Shown: one piece after another, positions 6,431-39,337 of the stretch
Layout: every line of letters starts with the position of its first letter
Numbering within the stretch: the first letter of the stretch is position 1
From: Shigella phage ESh36
DNA: 64,000 nucleotides
Strand: one strand, 5' to 3'
Sequence record: ON528746
Position numbers and translations under genes: made by a program
The notes under the pieces: generated by a model
What the model was told of the DNA's origin: nothing
Seen by the model: the letters and a program-made list of their open reading frames with translations, nothing else
The model's database searches: none

Positions 6431-8137
6431 TTATGGATAGGTATAGATGATACCAGTTTCTAAAGCAGTTTTATGAATGATGTATCCATTACGCGATTCT
6501 TGGACATCAACTTCTGGATAGTCTTTCATCATCTTCTGAAGAGTGTAACGATGCAGGTAGTATTTACTATCTGGATCTTCAGTTTTCCAATCTTTACCTT
6601 CTTCAGTCATTTTTTGGATTTCATCCATAACCCACCAACCGCACCAGATATAAGCTGAAGTACGATGTGGAAGAGGATGAACATAAGGCAATTCACCTTC
6701 TGGTTCTGGAGCAACTTTATCAGTTACCTGAACTTGGCCTTCTGCTGTGATAGTTTTGCTATCATAATCAGTAGCGGTAACAGTTGCAGTAACTTCAATA
6801 GTTTGACTTCCAATAGATGATGTATCAACGGTGTATACATTAGTTGACCCTTCTACAGGAGAAGAATCTTTCTTCCATGAGTATTCGATTTGTGCTTCTT
6901 CTGGAGCATCCGTAACATTAGCCGTAAATGTAGCCGAAGCATCTTGCTGAACGTTAATAGAAGGAGGAGTCAATGTAACCTGTGGATTCATTGTTTTCTT
7001 ATTAACTGTCAATGATACTTCATTAGAAGTAACTTCCTTTTCATTGTAATTTTCTGCAGTTACTTGCGCTACACACTTAACTGTTTTAGCTCCAACTGTG
7101 GTAGGAGTATAGTTAAATGTAGTAGTAGTTTCTCCATCGACCAGAGAACCGTCAACATACCACTGATACGTAGCAGACGCTCCTGGTGGCTGTGAAGCCA
7201 AGGCAGCAGTAAATTGAACTGGGGTTCCAATTACTCCGGCAGCAGGATTAGCAGGAGTTACGGCTAACGTAGTTGTCTGTGTCTTCTTATTAACTGTTAA
7301 TGATACTTCATTAGAAGTAACTGTTTTTGCGTCATAATCTGTTGCTGTTACTTGCGCTACGCATTTAATTCTTTTTACTCCACTTGTAGTTGGAGTATAG
7401 CTAAATGTAGCAGAAGTCGCTTCACCAATTTGAGAATCATCTACATACCACTGATACGTAGCAGATGCCCCATCAGGTTGAGAAGCTAAGGCAGCAGTAA
7501 ATTCAACGGCTGTTCCAATCACTCCAGCTGGAGGACTATCAGGAGTTACTGCCAAGGTAGTCGTCTGCGTCTTTTTATTAACAGTCAGTGACACTTCATT
7601 AGAAGTAACGCTCAATGTATCGTAATCAGTCGCGGTTACTTGAGCTATACACTTGATTTTTTTAACTCCGCTTGTGGCAGGAGTGTAATTGAATGTAGCA
7701 GAAGTTGCTTCGTCTACAGGAGAACCGTCAACGTGCCATTGATACGTAGCGTTTGCACCTGATGGCTGTGAAGCTAAGGCAGCGGTAAATTCAATTGGAG
7801 TTCCAATCACTCCAGCATCAGGGCTACCAGGAGTTACAGCTAAAGTAGTTGTTTGTGTCTTATTTTGAACTGTGATAGTTGTACTAATTTCTGCTGTTTC
7901 AGGTTCAGATTCTGCAACTTGATTGGTTGCAACTACTTTAATAGTCTTTTGACCGGCAGGTCCTTTTAGTACATAACTAAAAGTTGCTGACGTTTCTTCC
8001 TGTGGAGCGTCGTCTACAGTCCAAGCATATGTAATAGGTCCATCTCCAGTTTGACCACTGGGTGTAGCAGTAAACTGCTGAGTCTGATCTATAACTCCAG
8101 TAGGTGTTTTAGGAGTTATATCAACTGTAAAAGCCAT
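6431..8137 (-). CDS. hoc: Hoc outer capsid decoration protein with expanded Ig-like domain array
   Basis: 568 aa; N-terminus MAFTVDITPKTPTGVIDQTQQFTATPSGQTG and C-terminal capsid-binding region (...PYVHPLPHRTSAYIWCGWWVMDEIQK...) match T4 Hoc; three near-identical 96-aa Ig-like repeats in the middle. Confidence 0.9.
   Translation of the reverse strand: MAFTVDITPKTPTGVIDQTQQFTATPSGQTGDGPITYAWTVDDAPQEETSATFSYVLKGPAGQKTIKVVATNQVAESEPETAEISTTITVQNKTQTTTLAVTPGSPDAGVIGTPIEFTAALASQPSGANATYQWHVDGSPVDEATSATFNYTPATSGVKKIKCIAQVTATDYDTLSVTSNEVSLTVNKKTQTTTLAVTPDSPPAGVIGTAVEFTAALASQPDGASATYQWYVDDSQIGEATSATFSYTPTTSGVKRIKCVAQVTATDYDAKTVTSNEVSLTVNKKTQTTTLAVTPANPAAGVIGTPVQFTAALASQPPGASATYQWYVDGSLVDGETTTTFNYTPTTVGAKTVKCVAQVTAENYNEKEVTSNEVSLTVNKKTMNPQVTLTPPSINVQQDASATFTANVTDAPEEAQIEYSWKKDSSPVEGSTNVYTVDTSSIGSQTIEVTATVTATDYDSKTITAEGQVQVTDKVAPEPEGELPYVHPLPHRTSAYIWCGWWVMDEIQKMTEEGKDWKTEDPDSKYYLHRYTLQKMMKDYPEVDVQESRNGYIIHKTALETGIIYTYP
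6999..7862 (-). repeat. 3 x 288 bp in-frame tandem repeat inside hoc (Ig-like domain units)
   Basis: Repeat units start near 6999, 7287 and 7575, each beginning ttattaac(t/a)g...cttcattagaagtaac; roughly 85-90% identical. Confidence 0.85.
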
Positions 8138-8146
8138 AAGTTATCC

Positions 8147-8827
8147 TTATTTTAATGTTACGAAAGAAGAATTACGTGTTTCACGAATTAGAACTGATCC
8201 GTCGCGATTAATGTAATAAATTAAGCTAAATAAAGTTTGGTGTGCAGACGCATGTTCAAAACTAGTTGGGTGAGATTTCCAATCTGGAGTTTCAGCAATC
8301 CATTGGTAAATCCACCAAGGAACAGTGCAGAATCCTGGATTTTTTCCAATCAGCTGAAGATTTGGGCTAAAGTTTTCCGGAAGAGTAAATACGGACGGCT
8401 TTTCAGATTCAATAATCTCAGCTACAGCCTGCTCGAATTTTTCTTCAACAAAAGGAGTATCTTCAATCAAAACATCGGTATTTTCAGGAATTTTATCCGT
8501 TTCTACTACTTCAATTTTAATGTCAGATTTAACCGGAGAATCAATCAGAAGTGCTGCCTCTGGATTGACTTCTTCATCGTCATATTTTAATCCGTCTGCA
8601 GCATCAGCAGCATCAATTAAGTCTTTAATAGATAACCCATCAGTCTCTGGCATAGGTTCACTAGCGAGCTTCTGGAGGGCTTCTTCAATATCATTAACGA
8701 TATTATCAAAAGATTTATTCTTTTTGACTTTTATACCAAACTGTTCAGCATATTCAGCTAATTTAGCTTTAGCTTCTTTATTATCATCAAGAGCCTTCAG
8801 CTCTGCAATATAATCTTTATCTATCAT
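8147..8827 (-). CDS. inh: acidic head protein, probable Inh (inhibitor of prohead protease)
   Basis: 226 aa acidic ORF directly downstream of hoc, matching T4 inh position; assignment is positional. Confidence 0.5.
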   Translation of the reverse strand: MIDKDYIAELKALDDNKEAKAKLAEYAEQFGIKVKKNKSFDNIVNDIEEALQKLASEPMPETDGLSIKDLIDAADAADGLKYDDEEVNPEAALLIDSPVKSDIKIEVVETDKIPENTDVLIEDTPFVEEKFEQAVAEIIESEKPSVFTLPENFSPNLQLIGKNPGFCTVPWWIYQWIAETPDWKSHPTSFEHASAHQTLFSLIYYINRDGSVLIRETRNSSFVTLK

Positions 8828-8840
8828 AATATTTCCTCAG

Positions 8841-8848
8841 TATAAATA
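8841..8848 (+). promoter_or_regulatory. late-promoter-like TATAAATA upstream of segE
   Basis: Exact TATAAATA 28 nt before the segE ATG in the inh/segE divergent region. Confidence 0.4.
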
Positions 8849-8876
8849 TAGATATATTTATTACTCGGAAAATAGT

Positions 8877-9494
8877 ATGTACCACTTTGTATATGAAACA
8901 ACAAATCTAATAAATGGTAAAAAGTATATAGGAAAGCACTCTACTGACGACCTGAATGATGGCTACCTTGGTTCCGGTAAGGCAATTCAGCAGGCTATAA
9001 AGAAATATGGTGAAAACAATTTCTCTAGAAAAATACTAAAAGAGTTTAAAACTTCCGAAGAAGCGTACATGTATGAAGAAGAAATTATAACTCCTGAACT
9101 GATAAAAAGCAAAAATTATTATAATATGAAACCTGGTGGAATTGGTGGAATTGTTATGACTACAGAGGTTATAGCAAAGATGAAAGAATCTTCCGCTAAG
9201 AGATTTGAAAACTCACCGGGCACGGTATTAGGTACAACTTGTTACACTAATGGAACTAAAAATATTTTTATTAAGCCTGGAGAACTTGTTCCAGAAGGAT
9301 TTGTAAAAGGGATGGTTCATCCTAATAGAAAGTCCAGAAAAGGATGTAAAGTCAAACCGACTACAACAGGAACTTTTTGGGTCAATAATGGCGCAATAAA
9401 TAAATTAATACAACCAGACGGTATTATTCCCGACGGATTTATTAAAGGTCGTCTCATGAAAAGAGATTCTAAAGGCAAATTTAGTAAGGCATAA
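8877..9494 (+). CDS. segE: GIY-YIG homing endonuclease, SegE-like
   Basis: 205 aa; N-terminal GIY-YIG module (HFVYETTNLINGKKYIGKH...YLGSGKAIQQAIKKYG...RKIL); C-terminal repeated NG..N.L..P.G.IP.GF.KG DNA-binding-like modules; between inh and uvsW as in T4. Confidence 0.8.
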   Translation: MYHFVYETTNLINGKKYIGKHSTDDLNDGYLGSGKAIQQAIKKYGENNFSRKILKEFKTSEEAYMYEEEIITPELIKSKNYYNMKPGGIGGIVMTTEVIAKMKESSAKRFENSPGTVLGTTCYTNGTKNIFIKPGELVPEGFVKGMVHPNRKSRKGCKVKPTTTGTFWVNNGAINKLIQPDGIIPDGFIKGRLMKRDSKGKFSKA

Positions 9495-9496
9495 TT

Positions 9497-11005
9497 ATGG
9501 ATATTAAAGTACATTTTCACGACTTCAGTCATGTACGCATCGATTGTGAAGAGAGCACGTTCCACGAATTAAGAGATTTCTTTTCGTTTGAGGCCGATGG
9601 ATATAGGTTTAATCCTCGCTTCAGATATGGCAACTGGGATGGACGAATCCGTCTTTTAGATTATAATCGCCTTCTTCCATTCGGCTTAGTTGGGCAAATT
9701 AAAAAGTTCTGTAATAACTTTGGCTATAAAGCCTGGATTGACCCGCAAATTAACGAAAAAGAAGAATTATCAAGAAAAGATTTTGATGAATGGCTTTCTA
9801 AATTAGAAATCTATTCAGGAAATAAAAGAATTGAACCACACTGGTATCAAAAAGATGCAGTGTTCGAAGGATTAGTTAATCGTCGTAGAATTCTTAATCT
9901 TCCAACATCTGCAGGTAAATCTTTAATTCAAGCTTTGCTTGCTCGATATTATTTGGAAAATTATGAAGGTAAAATTCTTATCATTGTTCCAACAACTGCT
10001 CTGACAACTCAGATGGCTGATGACTTTGTTGACTATCGTTTATTCAGTCATGCAATGATAAAGAAAATTGGCGGTGGAGCATCAAAAGATGATAAATATA
10101 AAAATGATGCACCAGTCGTTGTTGGTACATGGCAAACTGTAGTAAAACAACCAAAAGAATGGTTCTCACAGTTTGGAATGATGATGAATGATGAATGCCA
10201 TCTTGCTACAGGAAAAAGTATTTCATCTATCATATCAGGTTTAAATAACTGCATGTTTAAATTTGGTCTATCTGGTTCATTACGTGATGGCAAAGCCAAT
10301 ATCATGCAGTATGTTGGAATGTTTGGTGAAATATTTAAGCCAGTAACGACCTCTAAATTAATGGAAGATGGACAAGTAACTGAGCTAAAAATTAATAGTA
10401 TTTTTCTTCGCTATCCCGATGAGTTCACTACTAAATTAAAGGGAAAAACTTACCAAGAAGAAATAAAAATTATTACTGGGCTCAGTAAAAGAAATAAATG
10501 GATCGCTAAATTAGCTATTAAGCTTGCACAAAAAGATGAAAACGCTTTTGTCATGTTTAAACATGTGTCACATGGTAAAGCTATTTTCGATTTAATTAAA
10601 AATGAATACGATAAAGTTTATTACGTATCAGGGGAAGTTGATACCGAAACCCGCAATATAATGAAAACCTTAGCTGAAAATGGCAAAGGAATAATTATAG
10701 TAGCTAGTTATGGTGTATTTTCTACTGGTATTTCAGTTAAAAATCTGCACCACGTTGTTTTAGCACACGGTGTTAAATCAAAAATCATTGTATTACAAAC
10801 AATCGGTCGTGTATTACGTAAGCATGGTTCTAAGACAATCGCAACAGTCTGGGACCTCATAGATGACGCGGGCGTAGTTTCTAAATCAAAAACATCTTCT
10901 AAAAAATACTCGCATTTAAACTATCTTTTAAAACATGGACTTGATCGTATTCAGCGTTATGCTGATGAAAAGTTTAATTATGTGATGAAAGAGGTTAAAC
11001 TTTGA
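9497..11005 (+). CDS. uvsW: UvsW DNA/RNA helicase
   Basis: 502 aa; Walker A (LNLPTSAGKS) and DECH box (MMMNDECHLATGK); SF2 helicase; T4 UvsW length. Confidence 0.9.
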   Translation: MDIKVHFHDFSHVRIDCEESTFHELRDFFSFEADGYRFNPRFRYGNWDGRIRLLDYNRLLPFGLVGQIKKFCNNFGYKAWIDPQINEKEELSRKDFDEWLSKLEIYSGNKRIEPHWYQKDAVFEGLVNRRRILNLPTSAGKSLIQALLARYYLENYEGKILIIVPTTALTTQMADDFVDYRLFSHAMIKKIGGGASKDDKYKNDAPVVVGTWQTVVKQPKEWFSQFGMMMNDECHLATGKSISSIISGLNNCMFKFGLSGSLRDGKANIMQYVGMFGEIFKPVTTSKLMEDGQVTELKINSIFLRYPDEFTTKLKGKTYQEEIKIITGLSKRNKWIAKLAIKLAQKDENAFVMFKHVSHGKAIFDLIKNEYDKVYYVSGEVDTETRNIMKTLAENGKGIIIVASYGVFSTGISVKNLHHVVLAHGVKSKIIVLQTIGRVLRKHGSKTIATVWDLIDDAGVVSKSKTSSKKYSHLNYLLKHGLDRIQRYADEKFNYVMKEVKL

Positions 11006-11694
11006 ATTATAAATTAATATATGATAATTTAATTAATAGAGCCCAGAATCGGGCTCGCCTTAATGGATACACTGAAACGCATCATATAATTCCTAGATGT
11101 ATGGGTGGTACAAATGATAAGTGTAATTTAGTAGAACTAACGGCTGAAGAACATTTTATAGCCCATAAACTTTTAGCTAAAATTCATCCAAACCATTACG
11201 GTATAATTAAAGCCGTTATATGTATGGGAATGAACTCAAAGACTCATGAAAGACACGTTAATAAATCTTACGCATGGGAACGTCGTAAAATGGCAGAACT
11301 TCAATCCGGTGAAGGTAATCCATTTTACGGAAAACACCATACGGAAGAACATAAACAATATATGTCAAAACTCATGAAAAGTCGTCCAATTACATGGGGA
11401 AATAAAATTAGTAAAACTAAAAGAATGAACCCAACGAAATGGACCGAAGAAGCTAAAAGATTACATTCAATCAATCAATCGGGTAAAAATAACGGCATGT
11501 ATGGAAGGAAACATTCCGCTAAATCTATTCAGAAAATTAAAGATAACATGCCAGATAATTCAGGAGCTAATAACCCAGCTGCTAAACCTATAGAAGTAAA
11601 TGGTGTTAAGTATAAATGTATGAAAGACGCTTCTAAAGCTACTGGATTATCAATGTACAAACTAAGAATACTTAGAAAAACAGTTAATTTATAA
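11002..11694 (+). CDS. HNH homing endonuclease-like protein (freestanding)
   Basis: 230 codons; HNH core GYTETHHIIPRCMGGTNDKCNLVELTAEEHFIAH; NUMOD3-like repeats (NPFYGKHHTEEHK, NGMYGRKHSAKS); C-terminal HTH-like tail; no ATG at 5' end, apparent TTG start overlapping the uvsW stop (tTTGA). Confidence 0.65.
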   Translation: MNYKLIYDNLINRAQNRARLNGYTETHHIIPRCMGGTNDKCNLVELTAEEHFIAHKLLAKIHPNHYGIIKAVICMGMNSKTHERHVNKSYAWERRKMAELQSGEGNPFYGKHHTEEHKQYMSKLMKSRPITWGNKISKTKRMNPTKWTEEAKRLHSINQSGKNNGMYGRKHSAKSIQKIKDNMPDNSGANNPAAKPIEVNGVKYKCMKDASKATGLSMYKLRILRKTVNL

Positions 11695-11708
11695 GGGCTT
11701 CGGCCCTT
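11693..11708 (+). terminator. stem-loop after the HNH ORF
   Basis: AAGGGC-TTCG-GCCCTT then TT; short T-run, so may be an attenuator or stability element rather than a full terminator. Confidence 0.4.
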
Positions 11709-11719
11709 TGGAGAAAAAG

Positions 11720-11950
11720 ATGTTACTAGGATTTAAACAATTTCTTTATGAAGCTTCTATTGATGAATTTATGGGTAAAATTGCCTCTTGTCAAACATTA
11801 GAAGGTTTAGAAGAACTTGAAGCTTATTATAAGAAAAGAGTTAAAGAAACTGAATTAAAAGATACTGATGACATCTCTGTGAGAGATGCTTTGGCAGGAA
11901 AAAGAGCTGAATTAGAAGATTCAGACGATGAAGTAGAAGAAAGTTTTTAA
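11720..11950 (+). CDS. uvsW.1: hypothetical acidic protein (T4 uvsW.1 position)
   Basis: 76 aa from ATG at 11720, preceded by GGAG; the ORF track extends it to a TTG at 11708. Confidence 0.55.
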   Translation: MLLGFKQFLYEASIDEFMGKIASCQTLEGLEELEAYYKKRVKETELKDTDDISVRDALAGKRAELEDSDDEVEESF

Positions 11951-12005
11951 ATTAAAAAAGGCCCAACCAAAAAGGAAGGGCCAAAACTATAGACTAAAGG
12001 TCACA

Positions 12006-12173
12006 CTATAGCAAAAGTTGTGTTTCATTTAATTGTTCTTCCGAACTTTCTGAAACTGGTAGTTCTTTAATGTAATTATAACAAGGCCCAGGATGTACAG
12101 GACCTTTGTCTGTTTCAACAACCAATGCAGAATCGATTGGAGTTTTACAGACAACGCAAATCTTATCTGACAT
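12006..12173 (-). CDS. small Cys-containing protein (T4 uvsY.-2 position)
   Basis: 55-codon ORF MSDKICVVCKTPIDS...GPCYNY, below the 60-aa cutoff of the supplied track; ATG overlaps nothing; codirectional with uvsY. Confidence 0.45.
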   Translation of the reverse strand: MSDKICVVCKTPIDSALVVETDKGPVHPGPCYNYIKELPVSESSEEQLNETQLLL

Positions 12174-12201
12174 GATTGTCTCCTCTAAATTATATATCTA
12201 T

Positions 12202-34322: not shown

Positions 34323-35910
<1,588 letters not shown>

Positions 35911-35940
35911 AATAAAATGGGCCTTGCGGCCCACTCCTTA
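35911..35940 (-). promoter_or_regulatory. hairpin-split ribosome-binding site of denA (and possible nrdB terminator)
   Basis: mRNA reads UAAGGAG-UGGGCC-GCAA-GGCCCA-UUUUAUU-AUG; the Shine-Dalgarno is 23 nt from the AUG in linear sequence but about 7 nt if the GNRA-tetraloop hairpin forms. Confidence 0.5.
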
Positions 35941-36440
35941 AAAGTATTTTTTAAAACTCATCATAACTTTATCATCAACATCATTATCAATCTGTGCAAC
36001 AAGGTAAGATGACAATTCTACTTCTTGTGGCGCAGATTGAACATTATCAGAATTAAGGTATTCACGAATCCAAGGATATGGATGTTTAACCGGAGCATCG
36101 GTAATTGGGCATGGAAGACCACACTGTTTCATACGAGATACAGTTAAGTAATCAATAAAGCTCCACATGCTATTTGTATTTAATCCAGGAACATCACCAT
36201 CTTTAAATAAATGAACTGCCCAGTCTTTTTCTTGACGGTTAACTTCCATGAAAATATCAACTGCTTCTTGTTCACACTCTTGGGCGATTTTAACCCATTC
36301 ATCACCATCAGTGCCAAGTTGAAGTTGACGAATAATATATTGGGTGCCTTTAAGGTGAAGCTGCTCATCACGTGCAATGAACTTCATAATCTTGGCATTA
36401 CCTTCCATGATTTCCATGTTCTTATGGAAGTTAAAGGTAC
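35938..36440 (-). CDS. nrdB: ribonucleotide reductase small subunit NrdB, exon 2
   Basis: Continues NrdB after the exon 1 stop; ...TFNFHKNMEIMEGNAKIMKFIARDEQLHL... matches E. coli NrdB FAFAERELMEGNAKII; 3' splice site placed by homology and is approximate. Confidence 0.8.
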
Positions 36441-37027
36441 CGTTATGTTCGATTGAGCTCGCTAATTCTCAACCCGTTCTCTTATGAACTGCTACATATT
36501 ACTATGCAGACCAGACTATATCACAATCCCAGAGGGATTCTCCCCATTTCGAGTCGCTTGACCCTACGTCCGAAGACTAGTCGTTGAACCTTGCTTTGCA
36601 ATTGTCGCCGTGCCATCGTTTATATGTTGATGGTGATAAATCTTTCTTATCACAATATGGACAATTCAATTGAATTCTATTTGGATTTAATTTACATCTG
36701 TCATTATGTTTTAGATAAAATCCAGGACCTTTACCAATGTGACCGCAGAAATCACATGTGATTTCTTTTTGTGCAGTCTTAACCATTTCTAATGTTTTTG
36801 CTGATGTCTTTTCTTATGGTCTTCCATCAGAATCTTTAGGTATAGGTCCGTTAGCATCTATCCAAATTTTTCTATAGTTCAATTGTGCATCCTCTTAAAA
36901 GTATAATCATATTTATGTTATACTAATTAAAGGTGCAAGCAAAACCTTGGCTGCTAGTTTTCCTATAAAGGACTTTCCAGCAATTAAAGGAGTTTTCGAT
37001 AAACGTTACCGTTTAAAGGCGCATTTT
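36441..37027 (-). mobile_element. group I intron interrupting nrdB (approx. 587 nt)
   Basis: NrdB frame stops (TAA) straight after ...FYVSFA and resumes about 590 nt downstream; proposed 5' exon ends in U and intron ends in G, as group I rules require; contains a decayed HNH endonuclease ORF. Confidence 0.7.
36577..36882 (-). pseudogene. I-TevIII: decayed intron-encoded HNH homing endonuclease (I-TevIII-like)
   Basis: Reads (L/M)NYRKIWIDANGPIPKDSDGRP-TAA-EKTSAKTLEMVKTAQKEITCDFCGH...CPYCDKKD...; HNH-type N-terminus then in-frame stop, HNH catalytic core missing, zinc-finger-like tail retained. Confidence 0.6.
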
Positions 37028-37703
37028 ACGCAAAAGATACATAAAAACGAATAGCTTCTAAGGCATTAATAACGTGCAAACAGAGGTAAAGAGATTTCAT
37101 TAGCTCACGCTTCCAATATGTCTCATGCTCAATAGCATCTTCAATAACGTCTTCGTCTGCATTAATTTCTTTTTGGTATTCGATATCAGCTTTAGCGTTT
37201 TCCCAATAACGAGTTTTAATCAGAACATCATCATAATAGCGACCGATAGATTCAGCACGTTTCATGATAGCTTCATCTAATACAATCTCATCAAATACCT
37301 TTGACGGATCAGTATAAAGATTTCGCATGATATGAGTATATGAACGACTGTGAATAGTTTCACTAAAAGTCCATGTAGCAACCCATGTATCAAGACTTGG
37401 GTCTGAAAGCAATGGCATAAGTACAGCAGACGGCGCACGACCTTGAATACTATCAAGTAATGATTGATACTTCAGATTATTAGTAAAAATATTTTGTTGA
37501 TACTGAGGAAGCTTATTAAATTGAGTAGCATCCATCATCAAGTTTACTTCTTCAGGACGCCAGAAAAACGAGAGCTGACGTTCAATAAGTTCTTCAAATA
37601 CCCTATGTCGTTGAATATCATAACGCGCAATTCCAAGACCAGACCCAAAAAACATGGGTTCTGTTAAAACATCAACCTGTTTAGTATTAAAAACTGTACT
37701 CAT
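37028..37703 (-). CDS. nrdB: ribonucleotide reductase small subunit NrdB, exon 1
   Basis: 225 codons ending ...LHVINALEAIRFYVSFA; ferritin-like di-iron protein. Confidence 0.85.
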
Positions 37704-39337
37704 TATTTTGTCCTGTAAACTAAATTTCCACAGTCCCAGATTCTTCTAAGACCATTTGCATAACAATTTTCTACTTCAGTTATTGTATCATCATAATTTT
37801 TAAGCTTGTTTTTAAGCTTATGTTTCATATAGCTTGAGCGGTGAAATACCTCTCCTTTATCGACATACCAATAACATGGCTCAGAGATATGACTAAATTC
37901 CATGACAGAGTCATAAACATTTGATAATGTACTGCACCATCTTCGATTGCCATAAGATAGACAATTAATTCCTTTTAATAATTTTGAGGCTCCTCCTACA
38001 ACACAAACCCCCAATTTTGAACACATCCTTAAAAGTTCATCACCTGTGCTATATCTAGATTTACCGATAGAAATAATTTGAACTAACTCATTATTGTAAT
38101 AAAGTCCTTTATACGTATGAGCTCCCGAGCAAAATCCTTGAAGATGATTCTTATTAATAAATTCTTTTGCCTCATCCTTATTAACAAAACGCGCTTTGCA
38201 TTTTCGGGCTGGTATTCTTTCTGATAATCCTAATTTATGCTTTATAATGGATTTCCAGATCTCTCTTTTTGTATCATCAATCCATTCATTTTCGAAGATG
38301 TGAAGTAATTGAATTCCTTGTGCTTCACACATCTCTGTCTTCATCAAATGATAAGTTTCTTTAATTTTATCTGTTTCCTTTGACCCGCTAGAATGCCAAT
38401 AAATTCCATCATATTCTATAGCCATTTTTTTCTCAGGAATGTAAATATCTAATTCATACGGAGGAATAATTTTTCTAGTTTCTACGCAATCAAATCCTAG
38501 ATCTAAAATGAATTGCTCTATAGAACTTTGAGTATAATGAACGTCAATTAGTCCTTTGGATGAAAGAGCTCTATAAGCCGTCATCCGAGAACAATTTGCT
38601 AATTGTTGTAGTTCTTCTATAGAAATTTTGTAATTGATTTTATCTAGTATATCATGATTAATATGACCGTTATTTTTAATAGATTTTCCTATAGATGAAT
38701 ATAACGATGCCTTATATTCTTCAGTCCAATTTAATTTAGTCTTCTTAGATTTTTCGCGAGATTTTTTAGAATGCAGAATATCAACTGATTTACCGTTTTC
38801 TATAACTTTTCTCGCTTCTTTCACACTTTCTAATTGTGAATTATGCGTTACCCCATATCGTTCAATTAAAGTTTTTCTATTTTTATTTCTTGAAATTTTT
38901 TGATGAGTTGTTCCATATTTTTCTAAAGAATTTTTGTGTTGAAGTTCAGACAAATATTTTTTATATTTTTCTTTTCCGCCAAAATTTGTATCACGGCTTT
39001 GAATTCTCTTATCCGCGAAAAATATCCCTGAGCAGGATTTACTACATGTTGCTGGAAATACACGTTTCTTTGCTGTTTTCAGAGAAATGAAATTTCCACA
39101 AACTGCACATTTTAGATCGTTAATGTCAATGCCTTCCATAATTTGGAACACATTGAGCTTAAAATCTATTCCATCAGTTAGAAGAGCTTTATCTTCTTCT
39201 GTTAGTCTAGATTTAAGTTTTTCTTCTCCAAATGGAAGAAACTTTCCGTTTTTGTATATATTATCAAACATAGCGTTATTCTTAGTTAACCACATCCTTG
39301 TGGTAATTATATCATAATTTACAGGATGAACAATCAT
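37703..39337 (-). CDS. modular putative homing endonuclease with Vsr/DUF559-like nuclease motif (mobE position)
   Basis: 544 codons; Cys cluster CAVCGN...CSKSCSG; NUMOD3-like repeats; HTH-like segment; AIEYDGIYWHS...ETDKIK...GIQLLHIFENEW resembling Vsr-like PD-(D/E)xK domains; ATG lies 26 nt inside nrdA 3' end; true start uncertain. Confidence 0.5.
   Translation of the reverse strand: MIVHPVNYDIITTRMWLTKNNAMFDNIYKNGKFLPFGEEKLKSRLTEEDKALLTDGIDFKLNVFQIMEGIDINDLKCAVCGNFISLKTAKKRVFPATCSKSCSGIFFADKRIQSRDTNFGGKEKYKKYLSELQHKNSLEKYGTTHQKISRNKNRKTLIERYGVTHNSQLESVKEARKVIENGKSVDILHSKKSREKSKKTKLNWTEEYKASLYSSIGKSIKNNGHINHDILDKINYKISIEELQQLANCSRMTAYRALSSKGLIDVHYTQSSIEQFILDLGFDCVETRKIIPPYELDIYIPEKKMAIEYDGIYWHSSGSKETDKIKETYHLMKTEMCEAQGIQLLHIFENEWIDDTKREIWKSIIKHKLGLSERIPARKCKARFVNKDEAKEFINKNHLQGFCSGAHTYKGLYYNNELVQIISIGKSRYSTGDELLRMCSKLGVCVVGGASKLLKGINCLSYGNRRWCSTLSNVYDSVMEFSHISEPCYWYVDKGEVFHRSSYMKHKLKNKLKNYDDTITEVENCYANGLRRIWDCGNLVYRTK

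Follow-up and report, generated by a model that had tools for sequence, protein, structure and literature searches.

A predicted Mob-type homing endonuclease gene inserted within the 3′ end of uvsW in Shigella phage ESh36

The stretch of Shigella phage ESh36 DNA analyzed here (record ON528746; 64,000 nucleotides, one strand, hereafter the window) carries on its plus strand, at the end of the gene uvsW, an HNH open reading frame (ORF) at 11002..11694. Read directly from the open reading frames of the window, it comprises 230 codons, with a TTG start and a TAA stop. The best explanation, and one that we consider quite probable, is that the ORF is a Mob-type free-standing homing endonuclease cassette which sits inside the end of uvsW, lacks a promoter, carries its own Shine-Dalgarno site and UUG start within a recoded uvsW tail, is translated from a late message by coupling, and homes on phages that lack the gene. 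Two observations go beyond the existing records: the insertion lies inside uvsW and brings a recoded tail that carries the Shine-Dalgarno site and the UUG, and a tight tract of linked substitutions lies upstream of it.

The insert was defined by BLAST of the window flanks against T4 and by junction alignments with nine empty-site Tequatrovirus genomes, namely resequenced T4, T2, RB3, OES_C-1, EC128, UFV10, Sfk20, KNP1 and VIPECOOM01. The features involved are the following:

10991..11679, plus strand: segment inserted relative to empty-site phages, 686-689 bp, its right junction ambiguous by 3 nt AAA (11677-11679)
10991..11005, plus strand: recoded uvsW tail brought by the insert (GAG GTT AAA CTT TGA = EVKL*; UvsW ends KEVKL*), holding the endonuclease GAGG and TTG
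11680..11694, plus strand: displaced original uvsW tail (ACA GTT AAT TTA TAA = TVNL*), now supplying the four final codons and the stop of the endonuclease ORF
9497-11005, plus strand: uvsW, 502 codons, its stop overlapped by the endonuclease start
11720-11950, plus strand: uvsW.1, 76 codons

All nine empty sites read ...AAT TAC GTA ATG AAA ACA GTT AAT TTA TAA GGGCTTCGGCCC..., with UvsW ending in KTVNL*. With a slash for the boundary of the insert, the left junction of the carriers is ...AAT TAT GTG ATG AAA / GAG GTT AAA CTT TGA ATT ATA..., and the right junction is ...CTT AGA AAA / ACA GTT AAT TTA TAA GGGCTTCGGCCC.... The new and old uvsW tails, identical at 14 of 21 positions, are a direct repeat that has decayed. 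Beyond the right junction, the hairpin GGGCTTCGGCCC upstream of uvsW.1 (11695-11706) and the GGAG Shine-Dalgarno site are native and unchanged by the insertion.

At the other end, in the sequence cTTTGA, the TTG of the ORF (11002-11004) and the TGA stop of uvsW (11003-11005) form a TTGA overlap at 11002-11005, and a GAGG Shine-Dalgarno site is found in aaaGAGGttaaacTTTGA at 10991-10994, 7 nt 5′ of the TTG. This TTG is the only possible start 5′ of codon 33 in the frame of the ORF, the first in-frame ATG being codon 33 itself (11098), inside the HNH core. An earlier note on this DNA had described a 230-codon HNH ORF whose TTG overlaps the uvsW TGA and which has no early ATG, and both its coordinates and its HNH string, GYTETHHIIPRCMGGTNDKCNLVELTAEEHFIAH, were confirmed. 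The same note placed the ORF as wedged between uvsW and uvsW.1; these flanks are right, but the insert actually begins within uvsW, five codons before the ancestral stop.

The predicted product is divided into a nuclease and two kinds of DNA-binding module, encoded as follows:

11068..11166, plus strand: HNH catalytic core, residues 23-55, with H28, N42, H51 and H55 invariant in a 60-sequence alignment
11281..11556, plus strand: two NUMOD3 repeats, GEGNPFYGKHHTEEHK at about residues 94-122 and GKNNGMYGRKHSAKS at about residues 157-185, with coordinates set by sequence motif
11578..11682, plus strand: C-terminal strand-strand-helix-helix module, residues ~193-227, resembling the DNA-binding helix-turn-helix (HTH) of I-TevI

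Pfam NUMOD3 (PF07460) matches two stretches of the product with 51.8 bits against a cutoff of 20.4, and PHROG 655, 'homing endonuclease', was matched at E 3e-60. The I-TevI DNA-binding domain gives a weak Pfam match (E 0.029), and its structure, PDB 1i3j, aligns with residues 157-216 at E 0.006, the second NUMOD3 repeat being included in this alignment. An AlphaFold model built from the 60-sequence alignment has a mean pLDDT of 89.1 and orders the chain as a strand-strand-helix around H28, N42 and H51, then the helical NUMOD3 units, and then the C-terminal module; in the HNH core it predicts strands at 25-28 and 43-46 and a helix at 48-61. Whole-chain Foldseek matches of the model are statistically weak, with the I-TevI DNA-binding domain ranking first (probability 0.99, E 0.25) and HNH domains next.

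The nearest T4 paralogue is MobE, with 41% identity over 181 residues (E 2e-33) and about 75% in the N-terminal 60 residues, and T4 mobB matches the HNH core with 92% identity over 62 nt. The features of the HNH (His-Me finger) superfamily are all present, namely the strand-strand-helix metal finger, the catalytic histidine, the conserved asparagine and the metal-ligand histidine, as are those of a Mob-type gene: homology to a T4 Mob protein, DNA-binding modules 3′ of the nuclease, and a free-standing location. Since the ORF has its own start and stop, it does not have the form of an intein. The suggestion that this is an HNH, Mob-like endonuclease is thus borne out by the identity to MobE, PHROG 655, the NUMOD3 repeats and the I-TevI-like tail. 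Judged from its sequence, the domain set of an N-terminal HNH nuclease, two NUMOD3 repeats and an I-TevI-like HTH tail is that of a predicted free-standing Mob-type homing endonuclease gene that is intact.

A tblastn search found full-length orthologues adjoining uvsW in two further genera, with 69% protein identity in Klebsiella phage Metamorpho (Jiaodavirus) and 57% in Escherichia phage TH40 (Gaprivervirus). Carriers are TH40 and DK-13 in the latter genus and Metamorpho and Roth17 in the former, and empty sites are known in both. In TH40, a TTG start again lies over the uvsW TGA (TTGA), and the gene is flanked by a perfect 19-nt direct repeat, TAATTAAACAGGTGGAAAT, of which the empty-site Gaprivervirus EAWsc9 has a single copy followed by ATAATG, where uvsW.1 starts. 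In Jiaodavirus, the empty phage JD18 reads ...AAT CTA TGA TTA AA, and Roth17 and Metamorpho read ...AAT TTA TGA ATT AC on the left and ...AAC CTA TGA TTA AA on the right; here the start of the orthologue is ATG, overlapping the stop as ATGA, and this overlap is restored at each end. JD18 served as the empty-site reference for this genus, and the partial genome of Klebsiella phage vB_KpnM_GF was set aside for its aberrant uvsW end. In that record (MK421971, ~380-440) the end of uvsW reads ...GATGAATAA TTTAATACGTAATGAG... and terminates early relative to JD18, probably through sequencing errors.

Every version examined therefore has both a duplicated uvsW tail and a start that overlaps the uvsW stop. 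The duplication is perfect over 19 nt in Gaprivervirus and spans about 9 nt in Jiaodavirus; in Tequatrovirus it covers 21 nt, has decayed and has been recoded for GAGG. The presence of orthologues at the same junction in three genera implies that the element is an old occupant of it. A more tentative proposal, to which we give rather less than even credence, is that the element is a self-contained coupling-junction module that always carries the last codons of uvsW. Its upstream copy would complete UvsW and serve as ribosome-binding site and UUG or AUG start, while its downstream copy would close the ORF and preserve the initiation context of uvsW.1. If the duplication is adaptive and not a scar, it represents a defined way to insert inside a coding sequence without cost to the neighbours, and the UUG, long retained between lineages that are 57% identical, would be a selected throttle on a toxic nuclease.

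The full gene was recovered by megablast in 48 Tequatrovirus records at 96.1-99.3% nucleotide identity, always adjoining uvsW, and its carriers include T6, Yersinia phage PST, ACG-C40, HY03 and UFV-AREG1. A query of the joined flanks matched 499 Tequatrovirus records, about 53 of them in a 95-99% identity band that holds the carriers and a few others; the other 446, with T4, T2 and RB3 among them, fall in a 90-95% band with the junction uninterrupted. Carriers thus make up some 10% of T4-like coliphage records, a patchy presence at one conserved site. Scans of IMG/VR gave two carrier T-even contigs and few uvsW.1 loci, and presence and absence were hence taken from the GenBank phage collection. 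A 75-nt query spanning the end of uvsW and the endonuclease start is identical in 32 of the 48 records and 97-99% identical in the other 16, and direct reading of the window sequence, of seven further carriers and of TH40 showed the TTG itself. Compared with the same gene in T6, PST, ACG-C40 and HY03, the window copy has the same site, TTG and junctions, and differs by few, mostly synonymous, substitutions.

As these records show, the view that the gene is a lineage-specific insertion holds in that it is absent from T4, T2 and RB3, but it is neither private nor novel, being annotated at this place in T6, PST and dozens more. T6 (AP018814 110699-111391) and PST annotate the coding sequence (CDS) from exactly this TTG, as do most of the 48 carrier records, under the name 'homing endonuclease'. 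Other records call it mobD/MobE, group I intron endonuclease, GIY-YIG endonuclease, NUMOD3 protein or hypothetical protein. PST names it 'mobD' with the note 'MobE', and the former label does not denote orthology with T4 mobD.

The second new observation concerns the flanks. When 1,100 nt on each side of the insert were aligned for 8 carriers and 8 non-carriers, all 28 columns with no base in common between the two groups were found at 10876-10984, at most 115 nt 5′ of the insert; no diagnostic column occurred elsewhere on the left or anywhere on the right, over about 2,090 other aligned flank nt. The tract is described as:

10876..10984, plus strand: carrier-linked tract at the 3′ end of uvsW, a candidate location of the endonuclease target and of self-immunity

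It consists of a recoded patch at 10876-10912, where carrier UvsW has VVSKSKTSSKKYS in place of VKPKSANTKKKYV, and of eight single-base changes at 10918-10984, all in third codon positions. Such a tract fits the pattern that would be expected of a recognition or cleavage site in the uvsW 3′ end of empty-site phages, with carriers protected by the substitutions and by the disrupted junction, and it provides an indirect hint of cleavage of the allele that lacks the gene. The two parts of the tract are separated in OES_C-1 (PQ553088, 2001-2722), which is without segE and the HNH gene, yet has the carrier-type patch (equivalent to 10876-10912) without the eight single-base changes, the last 75 nt of its uvsW being T4-type. 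OES_C-1 is a mosaic, explained either by loss of the gene in a recombinant or by an empty allele that is resistant; the identity bands of the joined-flank query suggest that about five such mosaic records exist. Together, the asymmetry of the tract and the mosaic OES_C-1 would be compatible with super-Mendelian inheritance with co-conversion.

The coding sequence itself shows values of dN/dS of 0.03-0.24 within Tequatrovirus and 0.11-0.20 between genera, and codons 2-32 differ between the window and ZN18 by 21 synonymous and 4 non-synonymous changes. These values point to strong purifying selection, codons 2-32 included. Residues 2-32 are conserved between genera and include the invariant Y3, Y23 and H28 as well as the first HNH strand, and the N-terminus aligns codon for codon with homologues that start with ATG. 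This ATG stands at exactly the codon of the TTG in T4 MobE, in the Jiaodavirus orthologue and in 11 of the 13 distant homologues whose N-terminus is aligned. Because residues 2-32 are conserved, the ATG of homologues falls at the same codon and dN/dS is low, the TTG is very probably the initiation codon, with a predicted N-terminal peptide of (M)NYKLIYDNLINR. It is kept in two lineages of only 57% identity, Tequatrovirus and Gaprivervirus.

Initiation at TTG, as the earlier note had proposed, is therefore the best-supported start by the conservation of codons 2-32, the GAGG, and the ATG at the same codon in homologues. The note had also pointed out that the endonuclease remnant in the nrdB intron opens with TTG-AAC-TAT, which was found at 36882-36874 on the minus strand. 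Its further proposal, that TTG-AAY-TAT is a family trait, fails, for 11 of the 13 distant homologues, T4 MobE and the Jiaodavirus orthologue use ATG. A TTG common to this gene and to I-TevIII, the nrdB intron endonuclease, was likewise rejected: the two proteins are not detectably related outside the HNH motif, where an 18-residue match gives E 0.083, and most homologues have ATG. Within the present family, the TTG appears limited to the Tequatrovirus and Gaprivervirus versions, and its occurrence in I-TevIII is apparently independent.

The arrangement of the locus bears on how the gene would be expressed, and the relevant features are these:

8841..8848, plus strand: TATAAATA, a T4 late-promoter consensus upstream of segE, the only plus-strand copy in 8800-12200
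8877-9494, plus strand: segE, a GIY-YIG homing endonuclease gene unrelated to the HNH gene, on the other side of uvsW
10969..11003, plus strand: predicted 11-bp RNA hairpin, 10969-10979 paired with 10993-11003

The TATAAATA at 8841-8848 is the probable start of a late transcript of segE, uvsW, the HNH gene and uvsW.1. Matches to sigma-70-like promoters in or just 5′ of the ORF were below shuffle expectation, and with the sole late-promoter consensus lying 5′ of segE, the gene looks like a promoter-less cassette on a late message. One further candidate, TATAAATT at 11008-11015, differs from the late consensus by one base and lies 3′ of the start, and no claim is made for it. The downstream start overlaps the upstream stop, as in coupled gene pairs, by TTGA in the window and TH40 and by ATGA in Jiaodavirus. 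This overlap fits the translational coupling that had been suggested from the window; in T4, the UAAUGA of mobE and nrdA and other overlaps between homing endonuclease starts and upstream stops have been read as translational coupling that keeps endonuclease levels low (PMC2988022).

In the predicted hairpin, with -8.7 kcal/mol for a 55-nt fragment, the paired bases include the GG of the Shine-Dalgarno site and the initial UU of the start codon; one of the pairs joins C11000, within the insert, to G10972, a silent change specific to carriers. The equivalent sequence of the T4 allele forms no such stem, which is confined to the Tequatrovirus carrier allele; as a conserved feature, a hairpin sequestering the ribosome-binding site was accordingly rejected, and it is kept as a minor point only. 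As the stem forms part of the uvsW coding sequence, it would be opened by ribosomes passing through uvsW, and the model may be taken as a suggestion that translation of the endonuclease depends on that of uvsW. A second hairpin, the GC-rich GAGCCCAGAATCGGGCTC at 11039-11056 on the plus strand, lies in endonuclease codons 13-19, is unusual for this AT-rich gene, and is terminator-like on the minus strand according to the scan.

The events proposed under the preferred explanation would be the following. The gene would be transcribed as part of the late segE-uvsW-uvsW.1 message. Ribosomes that have completed uvsW would reinitiate at the UUG lying across its stop and give a low level of product, and the weak hairpin that covers the endonuclease start codon and its Shine-Dalgarno site may tie this step to uvsW translation. 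During mixed infection, the enzyme would nick or cut the uvsW 3′ end or junction of phages without the gene, and repair would copy the gene together with up to 115 nt of upstream uvsW sequence. On the evidence of its sequence, the gene is almost certainly expressed.

Several points count against this explanation. The Pfam HNH match is below threshold, with 16.3 bits against a gathering cutoff of 21.4. The AU-rich hairpin is weak, and the orthologues of Gaprivervirus and Jiaodavirus do not conserve it. The upstream tract could reflect the history of one recombination event or an introgressed segment instead of immunity, given that the patch is also found in the empty-site OES_C-1, and the sample that defines it, 8 carriers and 8 non-carriers, is small. 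Lastly, literature searches found no paper that characterizes the uvsW-junction HNH gene, and the UFV-AREG1 genome paper lists the two 'UvsW' CDSs that flank it without comment. The earlier note had allowed that the gene might prove to be a conserved, already characterized component at this position, and this is half true: the gene is already in the databases as an ordinary kind of element, annotated in many genomes, and is uncharacterized in the literature found.

The 96-99% identity across carriers and the purifying selection also fit a resident or domesticated relic, translated and conserved but no longer homing, that benefits the phage, perhaps as a site-specific DNA-binding protein or nicking enzyme which excludes competitors or promotes recombination near uvsW. 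The family has stayed at one junction in three genera, and many mob genes are without demonstrated activity (T4 review Table 1, PMC2988022). Yet presence and absence at an otherwise identical site in three genera, combined with linked flank polymorphisms, is the pattern of active or recently active homing, and the catalytic residues are invariant. We therefore regard the relic as unlikely.

Still less credible is translation from the internal ATG at codon 33 (11098), which would yield a product without the first catalytic histidines and make the TTG irrelevant. TTG is a weak initiator, no in-frame ATG lies 5′ of codon 33 in the window, and the PHANOTATE-based ESh30 record begins its CDS at this ATG, 99 nt 3′ of the TTG. 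However, codons 2-32, with Y3, Y23, H28 and the first HNH strand, are conserved in three genera and in ATG-initiated homologues, GAGG precedes the TTG by 7 nt, and the Jiaodavirus orthologue has ATG at exactly this codon, all of which make the internal start very improbable.

That the ORF is an intron-encoded endonuclease interrupting a single uvsW gene has almost no chance of being correct: a sub-threshold match to TIGR01453, the term 'group I intron endonuclease' in the G28 and G8 records, and a Metamorpho record that joins the helicase CDS across the gene speak for it, but a 693-nt ORF fills the 686-689-nt insert, so that an intron core could not be accommodated, empty-site phages encode uvsW and uvsW.1 as separate ORFs, and Rfam Intron_gpI at E-value thresholds found nothing at 10700-11950 while detecting the nrdB intron as a control at E 8e-7. 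The group I intron was thus ruled out by the Rfam null, with its positive control, and by the ORF-filled insert. E-value thresholds were adopted in a second run because Rfam at gathering thresholds missed even the known nrdB intron across the window and was therefore uninformative.

The joined uvsW of some records goes back to the old 587-codon T4 uvsW, a sequencing error that was corrected when uvsW.1 was recognized (PMC1524935), and NC_000866 still shows the 587-codon gene. In the Metamorpho record (MT701588, 1002-3423), uvsW and uvsW.1 are joined as one 'helicase' CDS and the HNH gene is labelled 'GIY-YIG homing endonuclease'; both labels look like annotation errors inherited from the 587-codon T4 uvsW. 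In the GenBank records of the gene, the uvsW 'A' and 'B' halves are uvsW and uvsW.1, parted by a selfish element, and not a split helicase. A consistent description is thereby provided for a gene that appears in GenBank under many names, with at least one record truncated to the internal ATG.

Among the closest known systems is MobE. Both proteins have an HNH domain followed by NUMOD3-type repeats, and mobE, which lies between nrdA and nrdB, is likewise a promoter-less cassette whose start overlaps the stop of an upstream gene of an essential pathway (PMC2988022). The two differ in locus (uvsW/uvsW.1 as opposed to nrdA/nrdB), in start codon (UUG as opposed to AUG) and at the C-terminus, which is a Cys-rich module in MobE and an I-TevI-like HTH in the window protein. 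Moreover, unlike mobE, the window insert interrupts the gene before it, and replaces that gene's final codons with its own. The activity of MobE has been shown experimentally (T4 review Table 1, PMC2988022), whereas the window protein is known from sequence.

I-TevIII, encoded in the nrdB intron and active in RB3, is also an HNH enzyme; in the RB3 record (KM606994, 11234-12043, minus strand) its annotation begins at TTG-AAC-TAT, preceded at 8 nt by an AAGAGG Shine-Dalgarno site. Unlike the window gene, it is intron-encoded and has its own late promoter and different DNA-binding modules. The T4 review describes the RB3 copy as functional and states AUG for all three intron endonucleases (PMC2988022); literature searches found no paper that discusses a UUG start of I-TevIII. 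I-TevI (PDB 1i3j / 1t2t) has a GIY-YIG nuclease and not an HNH one, and with it, as with I-HmuI (PDB 1u3e), the likeness of the window protein is at the level of domains, with weak whole-chain statistics.

The locus also offers a testable case, with the classical laboratory phage T6 as carrier and T2 and T4 as natural recipients, of an insertion inside a coding sequence that repairs the end of its host gene. The predicted target is the last ~115 bp of T2/T4 uvsW, and the same case bears on how a UUG that overlaps a stop limits the expression of a nuclease. On its other side, uvsW is bordered by segE, whose product in the window is 99% identical to T4 SegE and for which uvsW is the target gene according to the T4 review (PMC2988022). 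That uvsW stands between two unrelated homing endonuclease genes, as had been noticed, is correct, and the two assort independently: T4 has segE only, BYEP01 the HNH gene only, T2 neither, and the window and T6 both.

Elsewhere in the window, the nrdB intron (36418-37025, minus strand) holds a decayed I-TevIII that reads TTG-AAC-TAT...LNYRKIWIDANGPIPKDSDGRP*, followed by a separate ATG ORF at 36577-36786. This intron scores 34 bits against the Rfam Intron_gpI gathering score of 50, and so is missed by a default Rfam scan of the window. The nrdA-nrdB gap contains a 544-codon ORF with an 'IEYDGIYWHS' motif (37703-39337, minus strand) at the place of the 232-243-codon mobE of T4 and RB3, and it looks like a different, larger gene of the mobile-endonuclease type that replaces mobE. 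Directly 3′ of nrdB exon 2, where T4 and RB3 have denA, a 144-codon GTG-initiated ORF with a GIY-YIG-like motif (35500-35934, minus strand) may be another seg-type homing endonuclease gene. Finally, the Hoc ORF (6431-8137, minus strand) has 568 codons as compared with 376 in T4 (1,131-nt CDS), and several near-identical repeats of about 95 residues within it suggest an expanded array of Ig-like domains.

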